Part shown: positions 621-31,401 of the stretch, piece by piece
Layout of the letters: each line of letters begins with the position of its first letter
How positions within the stretch are numbered: the stretch's first letter is position 1
DNA from: a virus
Lineage: Duplodnaviria > Heunggongvirae > Uroviricota > Caudoviricetes
DNA: 34,273 bases
Reading direction: 5' to 3' (one strand)
IMG/VR virus record: IMGVR_UViG_3300013137_000008
Notes under the pieces: model-generated
Seen by the model: the letters and a program-made list of their open reading frames with translations, nothing else
Databases searched by the model: none
Told to the model about the DNA's origin: nothing
Made by a program: the position numbers and the translations under genes

Positions 621-684
621 TAGTAAATAATTTACTAATATCTGCCATATAATACTTGACAAGATGTATGGCATACCCTATAAT
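621..684 (+). promoter_or_regulatory. Perfect consensus sigma70 promoter with palindromic sites
   Basis: TTGACA (656-661), 17 bp, TATAAT (679-684). GTATG-G-CATAC palindrome in the spacer (666-676). TAGTAAAT-A-ATTTACTA inverted repeat at 621-637. Confidence 0.85.
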
Positions 685-702: not shown

Positions 703-1773
703 GTGTTTATCTTGATAAAAGAAGTGGAGAATTTTAAGAAGCTATTTTTTGATAGCTTAGAGATTGATGACATACAGGCGTTAGATATAGTGTTAGCATC
801 CGCTGTTAGTCATAAGATACCTCATAGCGAGATGTTGTGGTTGCGTATTATTGGCTCTTCTGGCTCTGGCAAGACAGAGTTATTAAGGACATTGGCATCT
901 CAGGAAGGGTATTGCTCTACTATGGAAAGCATCACACCAGGAGCTATCAGGCGTGGATACGTTAATAAGAAAGATACCGAAATGCAAAGGCCGTTACTTG
1001 AAAGATTGAATGGCACGTTAGTTATTACAAAGGAATTTGCCATTATTCTTACAAAGGACATGGATACACAGAAAGAGATATTCGGGTTACTCCGTGGAGT
1101 ACATGATGGCGAGCTTGACGCTGATTATGGTAGCGATGAGGGTCATTTGCATCAAGCATCCCGTTTTGATTGGATATTAGGTACTACTCAGTTTGTAGAA
1201 CGGCAACGGCAGTTAGAAACCTTGTTAGGTTCACGGTTTATAGATTTAAAATGGGGTAGACCTATTGAGGATAATATAGCTGTTAGCAAAGCTGTGGATA
1301 ATGATGGGAATATGACTGAAATAAGGGCTAAGTTTAATCAGGCTATAACTGACCTAATCATTAACTGTGTGGTGTACCCAAAGCCCAATTTAGACTATAT
1401 CGCACCTTTGGCAAATGTAGCGGCTCTTCTACGTACCCCTGTTGAGAGAGACACCCGCACTAACGAGATATATGATATCCCTGATATTGAACTCGGTACA
1501 CGTTTTGGGCAATCTATGAGCCGTATTGCGAGAGGACTACTTATGTTAGGGGTTCCTACTACTGATATCAAACCGTATCTAGTACGGTTGGCTATGGACT
1601 GTATGAATAGGAAGCGCAAAGGGGTTATACAAGCATGGCTTAATGGCATAACCAAGCAGCAGGATATAGCTGATGCTACTCACTTATCAGTGTCTTATAT
1701 CAATAGAACAATAGAGGATTTGCGGATATTGGGATGGGATGAGAGTAAATTGGATTTATTGAGGTGCGAATAA
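703..1773 (+). CDS. AAA+/P-loop ATPase (MCM/primase-helicase-like) with C-terminal HTH
   Basis: Walker A IIGSSGSGKT. Walker B-like LVITKEF followed by EIFGLLRGVHDG. C-terminal KQQDIADATHLSVSYINRTIEDL helix-turn-helix pattern. Confidence 0.7.
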   Translation: MFILIKEVENFKKLFFDSLEIDDIQALDIVLASAVSHKIPHSEMLWLRIIGSSGSGKTELLRTLASQEGYCSTMESITPGAIRRGYVNKKDTEMQRPLLERLNGTLVITKEFAIILTKDMDTQKEIFGLLRGVHDGELDADYGSDEGHLHQASRFDWILGTTQFVERQRQLETLLGSRFIDLKWGRPIEDNIAVSKAVDNDGNMTEIRAKFNQAITDLIINCVVYPKPNLDYIAPLANVAALLRTPVERDTRTNEIYDIPDIELGTRFGQSMSRIARGLLMLGVPTTDIKPYLVRLAMDCMNRKRKGVIQAWLNGITKQQDIADATHLSVSYINRTIEDLRILGWDESKLDLLRCE

Positions 1774-2387
1774 TGGCAGATTGGTTTAGATTTAGCCCAG
1801 AGGCGTGGGTATATAGCACTCTACAATGGGAGATGAAGCCTGAACAAGTAATGGTATACATTGGGCTAATAAGTTTATGTGCAATGCGTAAATATGGACA
1901 CACAGGATATATAGCCCATGATAATTTTAATCCACCGAAATATCCGCGCACTAGGGGTGATATCGCTACTTCGCTTGGGTTTAAAGTGGATGTAGTAGAT
2001 AGCACTATTGAAGTACTTGTTAAAACAGGTAGAATGGTTATTGAACCTAATGGGATGATGCGTATTGTTTCATGGGATATAGTAGTTCCTCATGACAGAG
2101 GAAAGGGTTATAGTGAAGGTTTCAATAAAGAATTGAAGTTGCGAATAAAAGAACGTGACGAGTATAAATGTCAACGCTGTGGTATTCATGAAGACGAGTA
2201 TATTAATGGAGCAAAAAGTAAGAAGGGGCTTATCATACATCATATAGATTACGATAAACTTCATACAGATGACAGTAACTTAATTAGTCTGTGCGTGAAT
2301 TGCCATATGGCAGTAAATTACAATAGGGAATATTGGGCTAAAGTTTTTCATGATAAATTAGAAAAGTTCTATGGTGAATTTACTTGA
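1773..2387 (+). CDS. HNH endonuclease fused to an N-terminal replication-initiator-like domain
   Basis: TAATG overlap with the upstream stop and a GAGGTG RBS. CQRC...IIHHIDYDK...NLISLCVNCH HNH signature. N-terminal WFRFSPEAW resembles phage replisome-organiser N-termini. Confidence 0.75.
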   Translation: MADWFRFSPEAWVYSTLQWEMKPEQVMVYIGLISLCAMRKYGHTGYIAHDNFNPPKYPRTRGDIATSLGFKVDVVDSTIEVLVKTGRMVIEPNGMMRIVSWDIVVPHDRGKGYSEGFNKELKLRIKERDEYKCQRCGIHEDEYINGAKSKKGLIIHHIDYDKLHTDDSNLISLCVNCHMAVNYNREYWAKVFHDKLEKFYGEFT

Positions 2388-2471
2388 TTTATTACACGAT
2401 ACTCAGTTTATGGATTTGATACAATAGAGGAGATGACATGAATTATTTTGAGTTTGGTTTGAGGGAAAGAA

Positions 2472-2513
2472 ATGATTAATCCCTATTATCAAGATAAGTG
2501 GGTGACAAGGTGA
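2472..2513 (+). pseudogene. N-terminal relic of an N4/N6 DNA methylase (MINPYYQDKWVTR*)
   Basis: 26/30 nt identical to the start of the methylase at 28484 (MMNPYYQDKG). Its TGA overlaps the GTG start at 2510. Confidence 0.7.
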
Positions 2514-3391
2514 ATATTAGTTTGTTGACTGATGCTCCACGGCATAACCTCGCCTTAATGAAAATATCGGCATGGTATAAAGCCAATGGGGATCATGTCA
2601 CTTTGAATATGATGAACACGGGCTGCGATATTACTTATGGCTCATGGCTTTATGGGCAAAAATATTGTGCCGACATAAATGGTGGGCCTGTTTATCCTGA
2701 CATTAAGCTCGATTCAAAATTTGAACAAATGAAGCCGGACTATGACCTTTATGGATTAGATTATTCAATTGGTTATACATGGCGGTATTGCCCAAATCAT
2801 TGTAAGTTTTGCATTGTACCGAGGCAAGGAAATAGGCAAGAACATCACTCAATATGGGAGTTCCACGATAAACGATTCAAGAAAATTTGTCTATTAAATA
2901 ATAATACGTTCTCTGATCCACAATGGAGGGATACATTTCAAGAGATATGGGAATCCAAATTGCGAGTAATTGACGAGAATGGTTATGACTTACGGCTAAT
3001 GGATCCCGAAAAAGCATTGACGTTACAGCGGACACGTTTTGAGGGGACTGTGCATTTTTCGTGGGACTTAATGTGGAGCGAAAAGCAAATTATACATGGT
3101 TTGGAAATAGCAAAGGAATATATCAAACATCAGATTGTTGTCTATATACTCATCGGTTACAACACAACACTCGAAGAAGATATTTACCGCTGCCAGAAAG
3201 TACACGATTTCGGATTTGACCCATATGTGATGCCATATAACAGGGGGACAAAGGAAAATCGCAAATTCAAGAGGTTCATTGACCTCAGAACATACCGCAA
3301 GTATAAAACGATTACAGAAGCATGGAATGATTACAGACCATCTAAACGATCTAAACGATGCTCTCAAGAAGTTATGGAGTTAGGTCTATAA
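2510..3391 (+). CDS. Phage-type radical SAM protein
   Basis: CxxxCxxC motif YCPNHCKFC, with NLALMKISAWYK N-terminal motif and FSWD / VYILIGY core motifs. Likely start is the GTG at 2510 (GTGA coupling); the ORF track starts at 2498. Confidence 0.85.
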   Translation: MNISLLTDAPRHNLALMKISAWYKANGDHVTLNMMNTGCDITYGSWLYGQKYCADINGGPVYPDIKLDSKFEQMKPDYDLYGLDYSIGYTWRYCPNHCKFCIVPRQGNRQEHHSIWEFHDKRFKKICLLNNNTFSDPQWRDTFQEIWESKLRVIDENGYDLRLMDPEKALTLQRTRFEGTVHFSWDLMWSEKQIIHGLEIAKEYIKHQIVVYILIGYNTTLEEDIYRCQKVHDFGFDPYVMPYNRGTKENRKFKRFIDLRTYRKYKTITEAWNDYRPSKRSKRCSQEVMELGL

Positions 3392-3456: not shown

Positions 3457-3485
3457 TTGACTTTCCTGTAAGTATGTGGTATATT
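3457..3485 (+). promoter_or_regulatory. Sigma70-type promoter of small RNA unit 1
   Basis: TTGACT (3457-3462), 17 bp with TG extension, TATATT (3480-3485). Confidence 0.7.
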
Positions 3486-3490
3486 TGAAA

Positions 3491-3562
3491 GTGCCTGACA
3501 AAGCATTTGTGGGGCTGGTGAGTAAGGAACTCCACTAAGTAATTGGTGGGGTTTCTTGTTTA
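3491..3562 (+). ncRNA. Putative small RNA 1 ending in a GNRA-capped terminator-like hairpin
   Basis: AAGGAACTCC-ACTAA-[GTAA]-TTGGT-GGGGTTTCTT (3524-3557) followed by GTTTATT. G-U pairs work only on the plus strand. No ORF; ends are approximate. Confidence 0.55.
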
Positions 3563-3563
3563 T

Positions 3564-3592
3564 TCGACAAGATAGTGGGTATGTTATATATT
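3564..3592 (+). promoter_or_regulatory. Sigma70-type promoter of small RNA unit 2
   Basis: TCGACA (3564-3569), 17 bp, TATATT (3587-3592). Confidence 0.55.
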
Positions 3593-3596
3593 TAGG

Positions 3597-3656
3597 GTGC
3601 AAGTACGCCAATTTGTACAAGGAACTCCGGCAGAGATGTCGGGGTTTCTTGTATTT
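3597..3656 (+). ncRNA. Putative small RNA 2 ending in a GNRA-capped terminator-like hairpin
   Basis: AAGGAACTCC-GGCA-[GAGA]-TGTC-GGGGTTTCTT (3619-3650) followed by GTATTT. Same basal stem as unit 1 with a different upper stem. Confidence 0.55.
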
Positions 3657-3782
3657 AAGCGGTCTTTTTGGCGTCTATCTCTTTGATTTTAGGGCATTAC
3701 GGGCTATGGGTGGTAGGTGATGTACTATTCAACTCTTTGGATTAAGCCTTGGCGTTGTTTGCCCGTGAAAAGACGCTAATTT

Positions 3783-3811
3783 TTCTGTGCCACAGCCCAT
3801 AAATGACTGGA
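3783..3811. repeat. Intergenic repeat R1 (~29 bp)
   Basis: TTCTGTGCCACAGCCCATAAATGACTGGA, directly downstream of the stop of 3816..4223. Confidence 0.9.
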
Positions 3812-3815
3812 CAGG

Positions 3816-4223
3816 TTAACGGCAATTTAATGAACCGCTAATGACTTTGGGATATCCTTCTGAATACCGTTTCACAATGTTTGGAGGGTCGCTAATAGTG
3901 AATAAAATCGTCAATGGTATATCACAATATTCTGGGGTATTCAACCATTCTCTCTTGATATAGTAATGGTCAGGAACAGATAGTATTATTTCATCATCTT
4001 GGATTTTAATTGTATATGAACTAAAGTATATTCTATCTATACCAGTATCTAAATAGAAGTTGGTATTTGGTGGTATATGAATGGCTTGCCCTAATAATAT
4101 TGTCACAATTGCTAACATTGCCCACGCTATATACCATACAGTATTAAATAATTCTTTGGATGCAACTATGTATATTGTTAAACCTATGAACACCGTTGCC
4201 ACGATTGCTATTGCTATCCACAT
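3816..4223 (-). CDS. Small membrane protein with HYYxKR domain (paralog of 15806..16225)
   Basis: Two N-terminal hydrophobic segments followed by PDHYYIKREWLNTPEYCDIP. AGGAG RBS. Confidence 0.75.
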   Translation of the reverse strand: MWIAIAIVATVFIGLTIYIVASKELFNTVWYIAWAMLAIVTILLGQAIHIPPNTNFYLDTGIDRIYFSSYTIKIQDDEIILSVPDHYYIKREWLNTPEYCDIPLTILFTISDPPNIVKRYSEGYPKVISGSLNCR

Positions 4224-4242
4224 AACTACTTTCTCCTATTCC

Positions 4243-4271
4243 TTCTGTGCCACAACCCATAAATGGCTGGA
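4243..4271. repeat. Intergenic repeat R2
   Basis: TTCTGTGCCACAACCCATAAATGGCTGGA; 27/29 identical to R1. Confidence 0.9.
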
Positions 4272-4285
4272 TAGGTTGTTGTCCC

Positions 4286-4612
4286 CTAATGGGCAGGGAT
4301 TCTTTGTACCCCAAAATATTTATCTAACTCAATTAATTCCAATTGCGTTTTAGCATTATTGTTTGGGTTAGCTGTCGCCACCTTGAGCATCACTCGAATC
4401 TGTTCTACGTCTTCAACAGTAAGAGCATAGTATTCAGTATGGAAATCAAAAGGGCCTTCAGCAAAACCTTTGAGGAAACCCCAAAATGATGACATCTCTG
4501 CTCCTTTCTGCACTTTCCCCCATAACTCCGCAGTTTTACTTGTATCTAATAAAGAACGCAGTGTAAATATATACTGACCTGGTATCCCAATGCAACCATT
4601 CTTAGTAATCAT
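4286..4612 (-). CDS. Hypothetical protein
   Basis: 108 aa ORF with ATGA coupling to the upstream gene. Confidence 0.65.
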   Translation of the reverse strand: MITKNGCIGIPGQYIFTLRSLLDTSKTAELWGKVQKGAEMSSFWGFLKGFAEGPFDFHTEYYALTVEDVEQIRVMLKVATANPNNNAKTQLELIELDKYFGVQRIPAH

Positions 4613-4803
4613 TTATCTATATCCTCCAAATCCTCAGCAATAGTCTTAGCGAAAGCCCAAGGTAAAAACCAAATAGCAGCACAGCCAATCAGAATAAGGG
4701 CTACGTCAAAGTTATGGACTGCGTAAGCAAATATGATAGATACAATGAGGATGGCAAGTTCAATAGCAAGCCCCGCAAAGAATATCTTTTCACTCAGTTT
4801 CAT
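4609..4803 (-). CDS. Small two-TM membrane protein
   Basis: 64 aa with two hydrophobic segments; follows R3. Confidence 0.7.
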   Translation of the reverse strand: MKLSEKIFFAGLAIELAILIVSIIFAYAVHNFDVALILIGCAAIWFLPWAFAKTIAEDLEDIDK

Positions 4804-4816
4804 ATTGTCTTATGCC

Positions 4817-4846
4817 TTCTGTGCCACCAACCCATAAATGACTGGA
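4817..4846. repeat. Intergenic repeat R3
   Basis: TTCTGTGCCACCAACCCATAAATGACTGGA; one insertion and one substitution relative to R2. Confidence 0.9.
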
Positions 4847-4850
4847 TGAC

Positions 4851-4967
4851 TTAACGATTAGCGAGATACGAAGTATACCCTATCACAGCCACAATAATTA
4901 AAGTTATTACGATATAGATTACCATCCCCCACGTTAATGGCTCTAATTGCTTGTACCACTTATTCAT
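4851..4967 (-). CDS. 38 aa single-TM protein (not in the ORF track)
   Basis: MNKWYKQLEPLTWGMVIYIVITLIIVAVIGYTSYLANR*, with a GGAG RBS; it fills the R3-R4 interval. Confidence 0.7.
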   Translation of the reverse strand: MNKWYKQLEPLTWGMVIYIVITLIIVAVIGYTSYLANR

Positions 4968-4996
4968 TTCTTTGCTCCTTGCTTTTATTCTACACC

Positions 4997-5024
4997 TTTT
5001 GTACTATAACTCATAAATGGCTGA
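4997..5024. repeat. Degenerate intergenic repeat R4
   Basis: TTTTGTACTATAACTCATAAATGGCTGA; 22/28 to R2, and all 6 differences are transitions. Confidence 0.75.
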
Positions 5025-22688: not shown

Positions 22689-22966
22689 TACTTTTCTCCA
22701 ACAATGTAATTAATATTATGTCTCTTGCCATGGCATCGAGTACACAGAACGATACTGTTCTCCAATGTCATTTTCCCACCATGGCTTCTGAATACCCGCT
22801 CGTGGGGGTGCAAACCAGGCCAAAAATCTGGTTCGCCGCACTCTTCGCATCTACCTTGACTTCGCTCATTTAGTTGCTTGCGGATTTCCTTCTCTTCTTT
22901 GATTTGAGCGGCTTTCTTTTTTGAGATAGGATTGATCTTGCTGCGTTTCACCTGTTTAATCTCCAT
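22688..22966 (-). CDS. HNH endonuclease
   Basis: RCEECG...LHPHERVFRSHGG...NSIVLCTRCHGKRH. Confidence 0.8.
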   Translation of the reverse strand: MEIKQVKRSKINPISKKKAAQIKEEKEIRKQLNERSQGRCEECGEPDFWPGLHPHERVFRSHGGKMTLENSIVLCTRCHGKRHNINYIVGEK

Positions 22967-23124
22967 TCATTAATAGCCGCTGCTGATAACCATAGTATTG
23001 AAATCCCTGCCCATACTGTCATAAAAACCCTATCAGGTGGAGATGGGGATAACCATATACCAGCTACCATAGCACCAGCACACAGGAATGATACGGCGTA
23101 TACTATAAAACTAAATACTTTCAT
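22948..23124 (-). CDS. 58 aa two-TM protein, paralog B (not in the ORF track)
   Basis: MKVFSFIVYAVSFLCAGAMVAGIWLSPSPPDRVFMTVWAGISILWLSAAAINEWRLNR*; GGAG RBS. Confidence 0.75.
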   Translation of the reverse strand: MKVFSFIVYAVSFLCAGAMVAGIWLSPSPPDRVFMTVWAGISILWLSAAAINEWRLNR

Positions 23125-23161
23125 TTCTTACTCTCCTCGTTAACTTACCTATAAATTACGC

Positions 23162-23338
23162 CTATTTCTTCAATTTGCGTTCATAGCGGAAAGCTATAAA
23201 CATCCATATTGTTGCTATCCCTACCCACAATGTCATAATAACTCTATCTGGTGGCGTAGGAGATACCCACACAATCACTACCGTGGCGATAGAACACGCC
23301 AACCCTAAAATGAACAGCGCATAACCAAATTTACTCAT
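23162..23338 (-). CDS. 58 aa two-TM protein, paralog A (not in the ORF track)
   Basis: MSKFGYALFILGLACSIATVVIVWVSPTPPDRVIMTLWVGIATIWMFIAFRYERKLKK*; GGAG RBS. Confidence 0.75.
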   Translation of the reverse strand: MSKFGYALFILGLACSIATVVIVWVSPTPPDRVIMTLWVGIATIWMFIAFRYERKLKK

Positions 23339-25012: not shown

Positions 25013-25922
25013 TATCTTGCCTCTCTTTGATTTTGCTCATATGTTTATCCACTTGGTCATCGTAGTCGTCTGGTACTCCAGGCTCAAAACGTTTCCTTGG
25101 CATTACTACGACGTTTTTATCCTTTTCATCTTTTCTATCCCAATTAAGTATTGTGGCATAATCTGAAGCATATTTTTTGCCCTTGGATTGCTTATAAAGT
25201 GATAGATTTTCAATTTTATCCTTTGTTTTAGTTTCTCCAAATCGTTCTATTAGCTTATTGTATTCATCCTGTGTTAGTAAAACAAAGGGAGAGAATTCCT
25301 TCTTTTTGTTATTTCTGTTGATTTCTGCGGATTTCTGCGGATTTTCTCCGATTTCTGTTTTTATCCTCTCCTCTACTCTACTATAGTCTACGTTATTATC
25401 TTTAGTAGAAGAGTTACTACCCCTGTCTTTTGTGGGTGATTTCTGCGGATTTTCTCCGATTTCTGCGGATTTTCTCCGATTTCCAACACAGTTATCGTTA
25501 GTTAAACTATTTTCTCCGATTTCTGTGGATTTCTGTGGATTTAAAACAATTTCTGCGGTGGGTTTGGAAGGAATATCTGTTGAGCGATGTTTATAAACTA
25601 TAGAAATGCCCTCTATAAAGTTATCTGACCAAATAATCTTGTCTTCCCAAAGATTTTTATCAATTGCGTCTAGTTTTGCTAATGTGTCTAAGATTTCAGA
25701 ACATTTATCGCTAGCAATCTTAGTTTTTGCTTGAAGGAATTCCCATGTTGCTGGTTTATTGCAATCTATGTAATGCCCATTAGATACCCCCAACATCTCT
25801 AATAACTTAAACCAGAAGGCATATCCATCGTTGCCATATTTCTCTTCAATAATGAACATGGTCATTTTGTGTAAGCAATAGTGAGGGAAAAAGTCTACTG
25901 TCTGCTTTGCCTTACGAGCCAT
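25005..25922 (-). CDS. Phage replication initiator (DUF4373/Lin1244-like N-terminus)
   Basis: MARKAKQTVDFFPH...KYGNDGYAFWFKLLE; C-terminal KYASDYATILNW motif; internal repeats. Confidence 0.85.
   Translation of the reverse strand: MARKAKQTVDFFPHYCLHKMTMFIIEEKYGNDGYAFWFKLLEMLGVSNGHYIDCNKPATWEFLQAKTKIASDKCSEILDTLAKLDAIDKNLWEDKIIWSDNFIEGISIVYKHRSTDIPSKPTAEIVLNPQKSTEIGENSLTNDNCVGNRRKSAEIGENPQKSPTKDRGSNSSTKDNNVDYSRVEERIKTEIGENPQKSAEINRNNKKKEFSPFVLLTQDEYNKLIERFGETKTKDKIENLSLYKQSKGKKYASDYATILNWDRKDEKDKNVVVMPRKRFEPGVPDDYDDQVDKHMSKIKERQDNA
25320..25557. repeat. Iteron-like 10-bp repeats inside the initiator gene (putative origin)
   Basis: About a dozen GATTTCTGYG / GATTTTCTCC units in three 10-bp-phased clusters (25320-25357, 25438-25484, 25508-25557). 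Confidence 0.85.
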
Positions 25923-26233: not shown

Positions 26234-27592
26234 TTAAAACTGCCTGAAAACCCTATCAAGTGCTGTCGCCATGCGCTCGCCGTCCTCGTTAGTCAGGGCA
26301 TCCTCAGCAAGGGCTATGTCACCTTTTGTCCATACTGTGTTAGAGTAAATGGACTCCACAAATTGCTGGGATAGTTCCCTTGTTGCTCGTGGTTGGCGGG
26401 TCTTGTAAACGTGGAATATTGTTTTGGGTAAGTCATTCCACGAACGGATTAGATATACAAGGTGGTCATGGCAGTAGAAGTCGTGGCCTAATGAGATAAC
26501 GGGTTTATCAAAAATCAAGGCTTCAAACCCAGTAGTTGAGTTTAAGGTTATTACTCCTATGGATTTTTTTAAAAGCGATACTGGTGAACACAATGGGTTG
26601 ATAATACGGACGTTGGGAAGTTGCGCTAAGTGGTATAAATCGTGAAAACGTACATCTATCCCGTTGAAGTATGGGTGGGGTTTGATATAGAGTTTTACGC
26701 CTACTGGCAGGCATCTTGAGATACTCTGGGCTAACTCTACCTGGTTGGTGAATGGCTCCATGATTGTTATATTGGAGTCCTCTTCAAAATGAAACGGGTA
26801 AAAGAAATATTCCTCATCTTTCGGCTCCTGCCAGAAGATTCTATTGGAAATACCGCGGATGGTTGACCAAAATAACCTGTCAATTTCGCTTTCTAAGGGC
26901 TGTAGCGCAATTTTTTCATGGGGGCTAATGGTTTCCATTGTCTTTTGTGTTTTAAAGTACTGTAGGGCTTTGGAGGCGTTGTTTTGCAGGTTTTGTGTTG
27001 ACCAGTAGGACTTTAGCCCTGTTCCTTTGACATATTTCTGGTCGGGATAAAGAGATAGGATTTCGTCCCAATTTGCTCTATCTCCGTTCCAGCGGTGGAT
27101 TTGGGAGTAATCGTCCTTGCCGAACATAAAACCTCGCTTGGGGAAGCGTGAGTTCATCAGGTTTACCACGGGGATTTTTAATTGTCTGGCTACGTAATAG
27201 GCCATCAAGTTCCACGGGTTGGATTCAAACGCTATTGTTAGGCAGTCGATTTTGTAGTCTGTGTAAAATTTGAAATACCAGTCGGCTAAAAAGGTCATGT
27301 ACTGGTTTGTTCGTTCTATGTTTTTGTAGTCTTTGCAGTCGTTCTTACTGAATTGCCTCCAGTCTAACGAGCTTATGTATTTGAACGAAAACGGCAGTTG
27401 CCTCTCTATTTCCCGTTGCTCACCTATTGTGTAAATTTTATATCGCTCATTATACATACTGATTATGTTTGGTTGTTTAGTCCTGCCGACTATAAAGACT
27501 TTATGCCCCATCCTTTCAAGGGGGTTTGTCCACGCTAATTTTATGTTAAGGTCGTGGTCACGGCTACCTGTTAGGATTGTGGCTATGTTCAA
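26234..27592 (-). CDS. KpsS/Capsule_synth-like glycosyltransferase
   Basis: YFFYPFHFEED, LYIKPHP and VITLNSTTGFEALIFDKPVISLGHDFY are typical of KpsS/KpsC-like capsule synthesis proteins. Confidence 0.75.
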   Translation of the reverse strand: MNIATILTGSRDHDLNIKLAWTNPLERMGHKVFIVGRTKQPNIISMYNERYKIYTIGEQREIERQLPFSFKYISSLDWRQFSKNDCKDYKNIERTNQYMTFLADWYFKFYTDYKIDCLTIAFESNPWNLMAYYVARQLKIPVVNLMNSRFPKRGFMFGKDDYSQIHRWNGDRANWDEILSLYPDQKYVKGTGLKSYWSTQNLQNNASKALQYFKTQKTMETISPHEKIALQPLESEIDRLFWSTIRGISNRIFWQEPKDEEYFFYPFHFEEDSNITIMEPFTNQVELAQSISRCLPVGVKLYIKPHPYFNGIDVRFHDLYHLAQLPNVRIINPLCSPVSLLKKSIGVITLNSTTGFEALIFDKPVISLGHDFYCHDHLVYLIRSWNDLPKTIFHVYKTRQPRATRELSQQFVESIYSNTVWTKGDIALAEDALTNEDGERMATALDRVFRQF

Positions 27593-27593
27593 A

Positions 27594-27851
27594 TACCCAA
27601 CTCCATAACTTCCTTAGAATATTATTTAGATACTATCTAATTTGCGTCTACATGCCCTACATGTAACCATCCTCTTGTCACGTGTCGCATCCATCATCCT
27701 AACTTCTTTGTCACATAATGAATAGACAATAACTTTCCATCTCGCCGTTCGCCATTCTTTGTTGCCTACCCTAAAATGAATTGCCATATACCTTCCTCCA
27801 TTTGCATAAAGATGACGAGGGTTTTCTTCATATATCCAACTCCATAACTTC
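27594..27851. repeat. Direct repeat of the methylase 3' end (ATA[T/C]CCAACTCCATAACTTC)
   Basis: 16/16 identical core at 27597-27612 and 27836-27851, 239 bp apart. A related CAAGAAGTTATGGAGTT lies on the plus strand at 3365-3381. Confidence 0.8.
27626..27787 (-). CDS. 53 aa Cys-containing mini-protein
   Basis: ATG 27787 with GGAGG RBS; SLC...VTCRAC. Confidence 0.55.
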   Translation of the reverse strand: MAIHFRVGNKEWRTARWKVIVYSLCDKEVRMMDATRDKRMVTCRACRRKLDSI

Positions 27852-28484
27852 TTGTGCCAATCTCTTGACAGCGATTTCGCAATACTTTTCTTCAATATCA
27901 ATGCCAACACATCGGCGGCCAAGCTTCTTAGCGCATACCGCCGTTGTACCACTGCCAAGAAATGGGTCGAGTATCGTTCCTTCCTTAAATAAAGACATCA
28001 AATAAGCCCACAAACTAATAGGTTTAGGGCAAGGATGTTTTTTCTCTTCCCCCTTAGCGAAATTCAAAGTATTAAAATATAAATAATCCTGCGGGAGCCG
28101 TTTGAATGGTTTGCCATATACAAGAATTGGTTCCCAAGCATTATATCCCCCCATCCTGTTGAAAGATACCGCAGCAGGTTTATGCCAACACAATACCCAC
28201 TTAGCTTTTGGGTAATTCCATATATTGCTAATGCCCGATGTAAATACAATATTGCTTGTTACCCCTTGTGCAAACTTAAACCAATCCCTACAAAAACGTT
28301 TATATTCTGAGTCTGTTAATGATGGCATCCCCTTATCGTATTCTCGCTTATTAGGCCCAATATTCTTGGCATTATAATCTGGATCAGTCAACACTATATC
28401 CACAGGCTCAAGTTGTGGCAATATCTCACGACAATCACCGTGATAGATTATTATCCCCTTATCTTGATAATAAGGGTTCATCAA
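27828..28484 (-). CDS. N4/N6 DNA methyltransferase (beta class, phage orphan type)
   Basis: YHGDCREILP; motif IV LTDPDY (variant of DPPY); HPCPKP; motif I ILDPFLGSGTT. Confidence 0.9.
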   Translation of the reverse strand: MMNPYYQDKGIIIYHGDCREILPQLEPVDIVLTDPDYNAKNIGPNKREYDKGMPSLTDSEYKRFCRDWFKFAQGVTSNIVFTSGISNIWNYPKAKWVLCWHKPAAVSFNRMGGYNAWEPILVYGKPFKRLPQDYLYFNTLNFAKGEEKKHPCPKPISLWAYLMSLFKEGTILDPFLGSGTTAVCAKKLGRRCVGIDIEEKYCEIAVKRLAQEVMELDI

Positions 28485-30706
28485 AATCCCCCCGTGTACT
28501 CAAAAAGTTTAACCTCGTAGGTCTGTTTAACGGTCTGCGACATCATAGATAAATCCACTCCACCAAACCCCTTGATTGGTTTTATTTCCTTGACTTCCTC
28601 TAAATCTACACATGGTAAAAATGGGTCTACGCCACCAAATGAGTATTGAGTATCGTCTGTGAGAGGATGTTCTTTCATGTATTTTTGGGCTTCATCAAAG
28701 GATGGGGTGTCTATGATCTTTTGAATCCACTTTTGCCCGTCTATGTCTTTGTAGATGAGTATGGGGCAACCTGGGGATTTGACTGCCTGACCATCAAAGT
28801 TGAATAGTCTGACCACCATGGAGCGATAGTAGTCAGGGTGGAAGATGGTCATCCGCTCGATTTTGTCTTTATTTCCGTAGTAAAAGACTGATATGAACCC
28901 AGGTGACTCCCAACTCCATAAATCCCGTAAATCTTTACTCGCTCTTTCGGCATAAGTAGGCATGGCGGTAAATTTACCAGTTGCTGTTTGATAGTCGATT
29001 ACTATGTAGCGGGACTTGGCCTGTTTGAGTACAGTGACTGCCTTTTCGTTATCTGTAGTTGTTAAAAATACTGCTGGCACGTCACGATTCGTTGAGCCTG
29101 GGTTACAGGTGGGGACTCGATGGGCTACATAAGTAATCCAGTAACCATAGTCCCACCATGACATTACAGAGTAATTTGGTTCTTGGAGGTTGTCCTTATA
29201 ATTAGCGTAATAGTAGTTAGCATCATCAAATGGTTCAGGGGTATTAGAACGCATCCAGAGCATGGCCTGTTCCCATCCAGTGGTGATTGAGCCTTCCAAG
29301 GGATGTGAGAATTGATTGGAAATCATGAAGTTGGGCATGAGGATGAAGGTGAGTATGATAAGCACAAGTAGGATATCCCCCGCTTTGTCAAACCATTTCA
29401 TCTTCTTAAAGTTCTTTTTTAAGTAGTTAGTAGCGATTTCGAGTATCATGACTATTACCATACCTGACAGGATTGCTACGTAAATTGCCAAATAGTATGC
29501 AAACCGTATCATGGCAAGTGTGGAAATTACCATGGTCAACGTTCCTAATATGATGAAAACATAGTTAAAAAGTGTGTGTCTATCAGCGTTTACTATCTTC
29601 TTGATTACTACGCCTATCCCTATTAGGCACATGAATATTGAAGCTGTAAAGTTGCCCCACAACGCCTGTAAACTGAATTCGTTGCCAAATATCAGGATAG
29701 GCCTTTCCTCTGAGGTGTGGGAAATGGCGTTCCATTCTACGATTGACATGACTATACCGTTCACGTATCTGAAGTAGTTTTTGGCGAACATATACAAAAT
29801 AATAAGCGTAACCGCCGCCACTACGATTGAAATGATGAGCAATGCCCACCTATTTCTGTGTAAAAAGAATATCTGTATCAATGTAGTAATAAGCGCAACT
29901 GCAAGGAATAACCCCGATACTAACAATACGTTATTATCCACTGCCCCGTTCAGTAGCTGTGCAATGATAATGTAGAACAGTATAGTTGAGGCAATCATCA
30001 CAAGTGGTATTTGAAGTATTGCTCCGCTGGGAGCCTCACGTTTAAGGGAAAGAATAATCAAATACAGAACATAAGAGACTATGAATATCAAGTAAAGATA
30101 AATTGCTCCTGACCATGACCTCAAATAGACCGCCATTAATACCCCAGCAAGGATAGAAAAAATATAATTTACCCACCCTTTATTGTGGTATCTGACCGCC
30201 ATTATTACACACATAACTACAAATACACATAAGAACGCTTCAAAGCAATGGTAGTCAATATTACCTGCTATGGTACGTGCCATCAATTCTCCGCCCATAG
30301 TGGCAATTAAAAGCGCACCAAATAACCCTGCCCATGCGTTGAATAATAGCGTCCCAATAATGAACACTCCAATCACACACAATACAGCCAAAAGTGGCGG
30401 AATGTAGTAACACGCCAATTCCGTTCCGTTTTGGGGAATTAGCTGTGCTACACCTGAAATAATGGTAGGCCACAGTGTAATATCGGAGAGTGGCGGATTT
30501 CCTGTGGACATGAAATATGGGTCTTTATCCGGTAGGTTTACTCCATGTGAATTTATAAGTTCTATAAAACGTGCCTGGTAATAGGCGTCAACAGTTGGTA
30601 AACGTAACGTTTCGCCATGTAACCACGGGTCGGGTAGTATTACTCTGTAATAGAGGGCAAGGAAACAGATTGCTATGAGGGCAAGGATGATGAGGGCTTT
30701 CTTCAT
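28481..30706 (-). CDS. aglB: Oligosaccharyltransferase, AglB/STT3 family (archaeal-like)
   Basis: DAYYQAR, RTIAGNIDYH..E (DHH-like), HTSEE (TIXE-like), SWWDYGYWI and DYQTATGKFTAM (DK-like); about 13 hydrophobic segments. Confidence 0.93.
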   Translation of the reverse strand: MKKALIILALIAICFLALYYRVILPDPWLHGETLRLPTVDAYYQARFIELINSHGVNLPDKDPYFMSTGNPPLSDITLWPTIISGVAQLIPQNGTELACYYIPPLLAVLCVIGVFIIGTLLFNAWAGLFGALLIATMGGELMARTIAGNIDYHCFEAFLCVFVVMCVIMAVRYHNKGWVNYIFSILAGVLMAVYLRSWSGAIYLYLIFIVSYVLYLIILSLKREAPSGAILQIPLVMIASTILFYIIIAQLLNGAVDNNVLLVSGLFLAVALITTLIQIFFLHRNRWALLIISIVVAAVTLIILYMFAKNYFRYVNGIVMSIVEWNAISHTSEERPILIFGNEFSLQALWGNFTASIFMCLIGIGVVIKKIVNADRHTLFNYVFIILGTLTMVISTLAMIRFAYYLAIYVAILSGMVIVMILEIATNYLKKNFKKMKWFDKAGDILLVLIILTFILMPNFMISNQFSHPLEGSITTGWEQAMLWMRSNTPEPFDDANYYYANYKDNLQEPNYSVMSWWDYGYWITYVAHRVPTCNPGSTNRDVPAVFLTTTDNEKAVTVLKQAKSRYIVIDYQTATGKFTAMPTYAERASKDLRDLWSWESPGFISVFYYGNKDKIERMTIFHPDYYRSMVVRLFNFDGQAVKSPGCPILIYKDIDGQKWIQKIIDTPSFDEAQKYMKEHPLTDDTQYSFGGVDPFLPCVDLEEVKEIKPIKGFGGVDLSMMSQTVKQTYEVKLFEYTGGF

Positions 30707-31401
30707 ATGTTCAACTTCTTAAATTCAATTACCCATGTCCATGGGTTCGATTCCCACGGATATTTCTTGCCATTAATTGAATCCCACAGATGTTGAAACC
30801 ATGTAGTATGATCATTCTCACTGGCAATTAATCCTTGCTTTGGATCGCCTTCTTTTTCAGCATCATCCTCTGTTATATCCTGCACCCTCTCTACTCTGAT
30901 ATTGGTTATTTCAAGAGTGATACGAGATGCCCAACGTGGTATGAACATAGAAGATTTCCAATGAGTAACTTCTCCTCCATCTTTACGATACTCAATGCTC
31001 TCATCCTCTCCAAACCATAGGAAATCAGGGCACTGTTCTATTATTTCTTGATAGTAAATTATGTCTCGTTCGCATCCTTCATAATCTTTAATCTTATGAA
31101 TTGGAATTTCTCCTTTATGCCACCCCAATTCACCCCATTTTTCTCTTACCCATAACCTATCACCCACTTGACCATATGGGCATTTGATACCGTTTTTCAT
31201 GTAGTTTTTGGGATAATTAAAGTCTGGTGAGTCTGCCCACATCCAAGTGCCATCGTCTAACTGTTTCACATAAGGCCACGAATTAGAGTTATTGAAAGGC
31301 CACGCATCCTTAAAACTCACTACTCTGCGTGTCATAGTCTTACGACCATCAAGTATTGCCTTCACCATATCTGTAGAGAACAAAATAGGTCGTTCTTTCA
31401 T
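30703..31401 (-). CDS. Phage ASCH/PUA-like protein (MKERPILF...GRKTMTRR family)
   Basis: Start corrected to ATG 31401 (TAATG overlap). CPYGQVGDRLWVRE, WKSSMFIPRWASRITLEIT and NPWTWVIEF. Confidence 0.85.
   Translation of the reverse strand: MKERPILFSTDMVKAILDGRKTMTRRVVSFKDAWPFNNSNSWPYVKQLDDGTWMWADSPDFNYPKNYMKNGIKCPYGQVGDRLWVREKWGELGWHKGEIPIHKIKDYEGCERDIIYYQEIIEQCPDFLWFGEDESIEYRKDGGEVTHWKSSMFIPRWASRITLEITNIRVERVQDITEDDAEKEGDPKQGLIASENDHTTWFQHLWDSINGKKYPWESNPWTWVIEFKKLNI

Follow-up and report, generated by a model that had tools for sequence, protein, structure and literature searches.

Comparison of sequences confirmed that the two ends of a DNA methylase gene make up what appears to be a recurrent swap slot in a group of viruses of anaerobic bacteria, and that the radical SAM gene of the window (the whole analysed stretch of 34,273 nucleotides, a densely packed, virus-like sequence) is one of its many passengers; the arrangement is more general than the single replacement first described. 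The reading that we prefer, with a probability of about 0.7, is that the methylase ends act as linker sequences, which supply ribosome sites as well as short homology for the exchange of gene modules.

A radical SAM gene framed by methylase ends

The radical SAM gene belongs to a plus-strand operon and lies between a head arm and a tail arm, which correspond to the first and last codons of a phrog_67 methylase and together form a shell around the passenger. An intact member of the same methylase family resides on the opposite strand of the window. The features concerned are as follows:

656..684 (+), predicted sigma-70-type promoter with 12/12 consensus positions (pattern match only), heading the ATPase–HNH–radical SAM operon
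703..1773 (+), opening gene of the operon, a P-loop ATPase carrying an HTH at its C-terminus; synteny anchor
1764..2387 (+), HNH-domain gene, immediately 5′ of the shell
2472..2513 (+), head arm: 13-codon mini-ORF from the first ~12 codons of the phrog_67 methylase
2510..3391 (+), passenger radical SAM gene (293 aa, phrog_9298) with a Rossmann-like N-terminal domain and a radical SAM barrel; natural end of the family at about residue 277
2789..2812 (+), CxxxCxxC iron-sulfur motif (C94, C98, C101), invariant in 44 aligned homologs
3340..3357 (+), 9-bp tandem duplication adding three residues, private to the window copy
3351..3391 (+), tail arm: last ~13 codons of the phrog_67 methylase, fused in frame to the radical SAM gene
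27828..28484 (−), intact resident beta-class N6/N4 DNA methylase (PF01555, phrog_67)

The mini-ORF of the head arm is identical to the start of the resident methylase (28484, minus strand) at 25 of 30 nucleotides, one fewer than the 26 counted in the initial annotation, and the chance expectation of this match in the window is about 8e-6. The translational coupling was found as described: the stop codon of the mini-ORF overlaps the GTG start of the radical SAM gene at 2510, and an SD-like stretch lies within the arm, 6 nt 5′ of this GTG. The 17-nt exact match reported for the tail was likewise reproduced (3365–3381 vs. 27838–27854; chance expectation in the window about 5e-6), and the tail arm also carries a GGAG. 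The resident methylase matched PF01555 (E = 2e-23) and phrog_67 (E = 5e-47), and its catalytic motif, DPDY, precedes the SAM-binding FxGxG, which is the order of the beta class. It is of the same family as the arms but represents another allele. Since the arms of the window are closer to the family consensus, and to the arms on other passengers (L062, L088, L098, L148), than to the resident gene, they were not derived from it, and the resident methylase was rejected as their source in favour of better-matching alleles.

The 9-bp duplication, which had been placed at the junction between passenger and tail, is present but has nothing to do with the junction. The nearest homolog, P0001 (75% identity), has the tail without the repeat; judging by this comparison, the duplication is a later slip in the window copy that followed the arm fusion. 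Its interpretation as a target-site duplication or junction scar was rejected, as it is tandem, occurs on one side only and is absent from P0001; nor was a transposon-type target-site duplication found flanking the insert at the radical SAM locus.

Distribution of the tail in the radical SAM family

The gene product matched the phrog_9298 profile over its full length (residues 1–280 against positions 1–296 of 305, E = 5e-46), while its PF04055 score (13.4 bits) lay below the gathering cut-off of 29.5 bits, and 12 of the 44 family members gave weak matches to this domain. No description of the function of phrog_9298 was found in the literature searched. Among the best 120 of 906 radical SAM homologs, the methylase tail was present on three close relatives (P0001, P0004 and P0005 with 75%, 65% and 64% identity, respectively), attached where the family naturally ends, and nearly all of the 120 end at or just past a conserved W..Y motif near residue 275. 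The structure model (pLDDT 92) gives no support to the tail, an appendage whose pLDDT stays below 50. On these alignments the tail is evidently not part of the radical SAM family proper. No methylase arms were found at other viral loci of the family; the copies in phiCT453B, vir215 and BKO1-TP3 belong to the same family as the window gene but lack them. The proposal that the gene ends are true methylase remnants was upheld, and these ends are absent from the family at large. In a tree calculated with the tails cut off, the tail label requires at least two changes: the window copy with P0001 and P0004 with P0005 are split by the tail-less P0002, P0003 and P0006, so that the tail was gained at least twice or lost three times.

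In annotated phages phrog_9298 is found as a solitary gene in early/replication regions, and it was solitary in all genomes seen. At 39 distinct radical SAM loci, five of 142 neighbouring genes were methylases, which corresponds to the background rate, and no conserved neighbour was detected among these loci. A methylase-biased neighbourhood of the family was accordingly rejected.

Methylase ends enclose many unrelated passengers

Scanning of viral contigs, metagenomes (at least 120 loci) and genomes with head and tail patterns yielded at least 68 full and 35 orphan heads as well as about 44 distinct orphan tails. About 60 passengers in public viral and metagenome contigs were framed by two arms, a head of 20–44 nt and a tail of about 35–55 nt. 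The passengers were typed by PHROG and Pfam matches in a manual census. They include methylases of other families (phrog_799, phrog_11619, phrog_116, phrog_363, phrog_757 and a permuted phrog_67), Mom-like proteins (phrog_1384, PF25680), PAPS reductases (phrog_424), GNAT acetyltransferases (phrog_1249), a nucleoside deoxyribosyltransferase-like protein, sugar enzymes, small membrane proteins, HNH nucleases (seven of 60) and about 17 small uncharacterised ORFs. The Thoeris inhibitor Tad6 (PF25188, E = 2e-57) was found inside a complete methylase shell (L145:4851–5360, minus strand), and a second radical SAM family of ~315 aa, similar to phrog_1802, occupied the slot in L020 (5762–6700, minus strand), L193 (283–1242, plus strand) and L147. 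Two passengers of 165–176 aa (L069:6998–7525, minus strand; L133:1616–2110, plus strand) have a DPPY and a C-terminal F.G.G motif with no Pfam or PHROG match, and they probably represent a very small unnamed DNA methylase family, as their motifs suggest. In L034 the shell is empty, with nothing between the arms.

Orphan heads were compared with those of control genes in the same viral collection. Six of 16 distinct phrog_67 heads were orphans, vs. none of 71 for a replication initiator (p = 2e-5) and two of 81 for another accessory methylase (p = 2e-4), control genes which span more phage lineages than the methylase and one of which is essential. Profiles were built from 57 full heads and 79 full tails, and by their scores each of the 34 true orphan heads retained 20–44 nt without extending to the conserved HGDC codons, while 43 of 44 tails kept 8–27 nt before the QEV codons; the lower of these limits were set by the search patterns, the upper ones are independent of them. 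Conservation in the methylase itself extends far beyond the lengths of the arms. On the 5′ side, the joint falls on the ribosome site or start codon of the passenger, and the head forms either a coupled mini-ORF or an in-frame extension. On the 3′ side, the tail is attached to the last codons of the passenger, and 21 of the 44 tails are in frame. In the majority of shells the head contains an SD-like stretch 5–12 nt 5′ of the passenger start, and the GGAG of the tail precedes an ATGA-type start of the next gene. No terminator was found at the arms, and the junction of tail and head forms no hairpin beyond those of shuffled sequences.

These data allow the arms to be viewed as passive scars of a very common and often lost phage methylase, where deletions leave stubs that are kept only for their translation signals, and where no exchange system exists. 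The empty shell of L034 is a plain core deletion, heads occur alone (L047, L091) as do tails (L107, L144, L004, L005), and the spread of the joints over about 25 nt, together with the missing hairpin, speaks against a site-specific recombinase. We consider this explanation doubtful, however, as complete two-arm shells are numerous, unrelated passengers bear the same arm variants, long remnants were not seen, and near-identical direct repeats in L003 (see below) point to recent recombination at the arms.

The HNH passengers raise another possibility, namely that homing nucleases cut the conserved methylase ends, the HNH genes being the founders, and that break repair then copies whatever lies between the arms of a co-infecting genome. 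Several HNH genes stand directly 3′ of an intact methylase and are followed by a second tail (L092, L112, L144), and the shell of the window is itself preceded by an HNH-domain gene. Yet the joints are not at one fixed site and most shells have no HNH gene inside or alongside, which makes such a drive improbable. It is less probable still, to the point of being hardly credible, that the shells are assembly chimeras formed at repeated methylase ends: although all data come from metagenomic assemblies, the joints between arm and passenger share too few bases for k-mer chimeras, identical shells occur in separate records (L054/L121, L038/L163, L066/L127), and the layout is common to diverged homologs (window and L003; 75% aa identity).

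For annotation this has a practical consequence: the C-terminal tag that recurs on many otherwise unrelated viral proteins here should be read as a scar of recombination and not as a domain.

Replacement, tandem arrays and synteny

In situ replacement, which the initial annotation had proposed for the radical SAM gene, was shown for other passengers at one orthologous slot. This slot, recognised by a small gene on its upstream side and members of one gene family on its downstream side, holds the full methylase in L063, L120, L121, L160, L168 and L189, a GNAT gene in L106 and a phrog_799 methylase in L171, while L195, which shares the downstream flank, carries a deoxyribosyltransferase-like gene and a PAPS reductase. 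Tandem arrays were found in L095, L133, L107, L144 and L148; in L095 the order is HNH with tail, methylase, PAPS reductase between head and tail, and methylase again. In L003, the contig of P0001, a methylase tail is followed by a head of 11 codons whose joint differs, then by the radical SAM gene with its tail and by a full methylase, and the tail–head junction is duplicated on both sides of the radical SAM gene with 46 of 50 nucleotides identical. Here the radical SAM gene stands in tandem with an intact methylase, so it can adjoin a methylase and does not only replace one.

For the window locus itself replacement was only partly supported. Because relatives of the upstream ATPase were not found in viral contigs and no record was found for the HNH gene (1764..2387), synteny was traced through metagenome proteins. 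A relative with a methylase in the same operon is L264: downstream of its 75%-identical ATPase by 1.7 kb, on the same strand and behind different small genes, it carries a full phrog_67 methylase with similar ends. L261 (92% ATPase identity, short contig) and L262 (80%) show neither methylase nor radical SAM gene, and exact synteny was not found among these three relatives. A contig of this type of virus (L263/L264, GCA_022868165.1) has been assigned to a Patescibacteria MAG, probably through a binning error. Three MAG contigs of Dehalococcoidia (L205, L207, L208) are among the named genomes with true tail matches, and named relatives of the window ATPase include Chloroflexota and Dehalococcoidales; considering these tail-bearing contigs and the taxonomy of the ATPase relatives, the hosts are probably Dehalococcoidia.

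How the slot may work

If the methylase ends are linkers in the early operons of these viruses, a passenger would be captured initially by infrequent illegitimate recombination, with one joint at its ribosome site or start codon and the other within its last codons. These joints would survive only where the upstream stop, the initiation of the passenger and the ribosome site of the next gene stay intact, and the 4-bp gene overlaps within operons would force them into the methylase ends. The head would retain the stop of the upstream gene and give the passenger an SD-like site and coupling, while the tail would preserve the ribosome site for the following gene. A passenger that has been framed could then change places with methylase alleles of any kind, or with another passenger, via the 30–90 nt homology of the arms, possibly by phage single-strand-annealing proteins. 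ERF and RecT genes adjoin shells in L159 and L038, and repeats of tail and head form tandem arrays. Red-beta requires about 30 bp of homology (PMC3945230), and for Rad52-like phage recombinases short, diverged homology is enough for mosaic formation (PMC3945230, PMC2327257). Such relaxed recombination would account for the trading of framed passengers in these viruses but not for their first capture.

Linker-based modular exchange has been described for Botstein–Campbell linkers, T4-type PeSL cassettes and the T-even IP loci (PMC2839356, PMC4122927). Like these, the methylase arms are short conserved sequences that flank variable non-essential genes, bring expression signals, offer homology for insertion, deletion or replacement, and occur in tandem units. 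Short conserved sequences were found on both sides of interchangeable modules, and for other passengers the same flanking genes enclose different modules, which holds only partly at the window locus. In contrast to PeSL, the linkers here consist of the coding ends of an enzyme gene, of which an intact copy persists among the alleles. They supply translation signals instead of promoter–terminator pairs and have no stem-loop (a PeSL-type promoter with a stem-loop terminator was not found in the arms), and the passenger gains a mini-ORF and frequently a C-terminal tag in frame. No published description of a swap slot made of methylase ends was found in the literature searched. The shells are a plain example from nature of the long-standing linker model of phage mosaicism, with the peculiarity that coding ends of an enzyme gene have been reused as linkers.

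Integron cassettes are arranged in tandem arrays, and each consists of barely more than a single ORF with its ribosome site and stop codon. Shell passengers resemble them in this one-ORF content and in the arrays, but the shells have variable joints and no attC-like hairpin, and no integrase is implied. An attC-like site was rejected on the grounds that the junction folds no better than shuffled sequences and that the joints vary.

Does the slot imply DNA modification?

After removal of the radical SAM genes and the empty shell, 52 of the 60 passengers in the census remained. Methylase or Mom-like proteins make up 16 of them (14 if two typed by the DPPY motif alone are dropped), or 21 together with the PAPS reductases, for whose homologs a role in DNA modification is merely presumed (PMC11437467). 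Methylase-like genes account for 25 of 688 nearby co-directional genes, or 25 of 311 when only genes of 120 aa or more are counted; the enrichment is therefore 31% vs. 4–8% (Fisher's exact test, 1e-9 and 2e-5, respectively). The slot leans towards DNA modification without being anywhere near restricted to it. It marks a site rich in DNA protection, which is no proof that the radical SAM enzyme modifies DNA, and since many unrelated passengers (HNH, sugar enzyme, small membrane proteins, or nothing) share it, the shell gives only a probabilistic hint on function. The earlier view that the radical SAM enzyme and the methylase occupy the same functional slot survives to this extent.

In its strong form, this view holds that the radical SAM gene replaced the methylase by doing the same job, the modification of viral DNA, in a function-specific slot. 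It fits the share of methylase/Mom-like passengers above nearby-gene rates, the occurrence of a second radical SAM family (phrog_1802) as passenger, the solitary gene, its basic and conserved C-terminal region, and a fold like that of radical SAM methylases. Nevertheless, over half of the passengers fall outside DNA modification (HNH, Tad6, sugar enzymes, 17 small uncharacterised proteins, empty), radical SAM and methylase genes are both present in L003 and in the window, the methylases among the neighbours of the family are at background, and the nearest folds act on protein (MgmA, RimO), tRNA (MiaB) or small molecules (AprD4). A function-specific slot is a minority possibility, and exchange of modules through linkers remains our preferred account.

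The model of the radical SAM protein contains a partial TIM-barrel core, and its chain ends in short helices near residue 277; its last 40 residues are basic and conserved. No solved structures related by sequence were found. In the structure search 37 chains reached a Z of at least 8, and the listed ones are radical SAM enzymes. MgmA (9ccb; Z 17.0, rmsd 3.8, 267 residues aligned), MiaB (Z 16.6, rmsd 3.5, 262 aligned) and AprD4 (Z 15.8, rmsd 3.8, 274 aligned) matched nearly the whole chain, and RimO (Z 15.6) and TsrM (Z 14.9) were also matched. The alignments of the top seven matches begin at residues 1–3, and all seven have an N-terminal Rossmann-like domain, which in the window enzyme comprises only ~75 residues. 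The two-domain fold is thus held in common with cobalamin-dependent radical SAM enzymes and methylthiotransferases (MgmA, TsrM, CysS, TokK, AprD4, MiaB, RimO), although the window enzyme is about 130 residues shorter, shows 11–17% identity to them, and lacks the N-terminal cysteine triad, the TRAM domain and a Pfam B12-binding match. PF02310 (B12-binding) matched none of 44 family members, while a nearby Atlas cluster carries it on 33% of its members. A methylthiotransferase of the MiaB/RimO/MtaB kind was rejected, as there is no conserved Cys before C94 and no TRAM domain.

Going by the model, the protein is most likely a stand-alone cobalamin-type enzyme that acts on a ubiquitous macromolecule, the latter because its gene is solitary. 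The single best guess for the substrate is phage DNA, which is tentative; modification of DNA by the enzyme is plausible at the same low level of confidence. Protein and tRNA taken jointly are a slightly stronger candidate, still short of an even chance, and in our judgement a nucleotide or other small molecule takes up the remaining probability. A bolder combination, in which the arms delimit an actively traded slot for DNA protection and anti-defence and phrog_9298, a family widespread in phages, is a miniature cobalamin-type enzyme placing a new chemical mark on phage DNA, is rather unlikely; if it were true, the 17 small uncharacterised passengers would be candidate anti-defence genes, as the Tad6 passenger suggests. 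Two short motifs suffice to retrieve genes traded against the methylase; DNA-modification genes are over-represented among them, and one is an established anti-defence gene. The passenger list thus offers a cheap nomination of candidate defence-evasion proteins, the two uncharacterised radical SAM families included.

Further remnants and repeats in the window

A second framed ORF follows the resident methylase, and it includes a third methylase tail that is absent from the initial annotation:

27766..27831 (−), remnant of an AglB gene start, 21 codons, coupled to the methylase stop
27626..27787 (−), second passenger of the window, an uncharacterised ORF of 53 aa flanked by the AglB-start remnant and by the third methylase tail
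27589..27620 (−), third methylase tail, out of frame
30703..30716 (−), end of a phrog_874 gene, before AglB, where a fourth tail may persist in eroded form (inference)

The segment 27626–27831 after the methylase stop can be described as a hybrid shell with an AglB head, the 53-aa ORF and a methylase tail, whose GGAG precedes the TTG start of a capsule-synthesis gene. The AglB-start remnant shows that genes besides the methylase can leave such remnants. In L164 a full methylase tail lies before a near-identical AglB start; AglB is also found 3′ of a methylase tail in L004 as well as in L164. Before the head arm of the radical SAM gene (2432–2479, plus strand), further mini-ORFs of 2 and 13 codons form a chain in which each overlaps the start of the one that follows; they may represent older remnants.

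Directly 3′ of the radical SAM operon (3457–3660, plus strand) there are two promoter-like sites, each followed by a hairpin. Between small minus-strand membrane genes at 3783–5023, a repeat of ~30–45 nt occurs in four copies, which adds to the methylase arms a boundary repeat of an unrelated kind. The minus-strand region 5296–30706 encodes an AglB/STT3 oligosaccharyltransferase, PseB, NeuB, WbuX/HisF and other sugar genes, with small membrane genes interspersed. Two neighbouring paralogous 58-aa membrane proteins are encoded at 22948–23338 (minus strand; 77% identity over 66 nt), and a homolog lies 3′ of the shell in L148. Finally, short tandem peptide repeats within the replication-initiator gene (25308–25558) are likely origin iterons.
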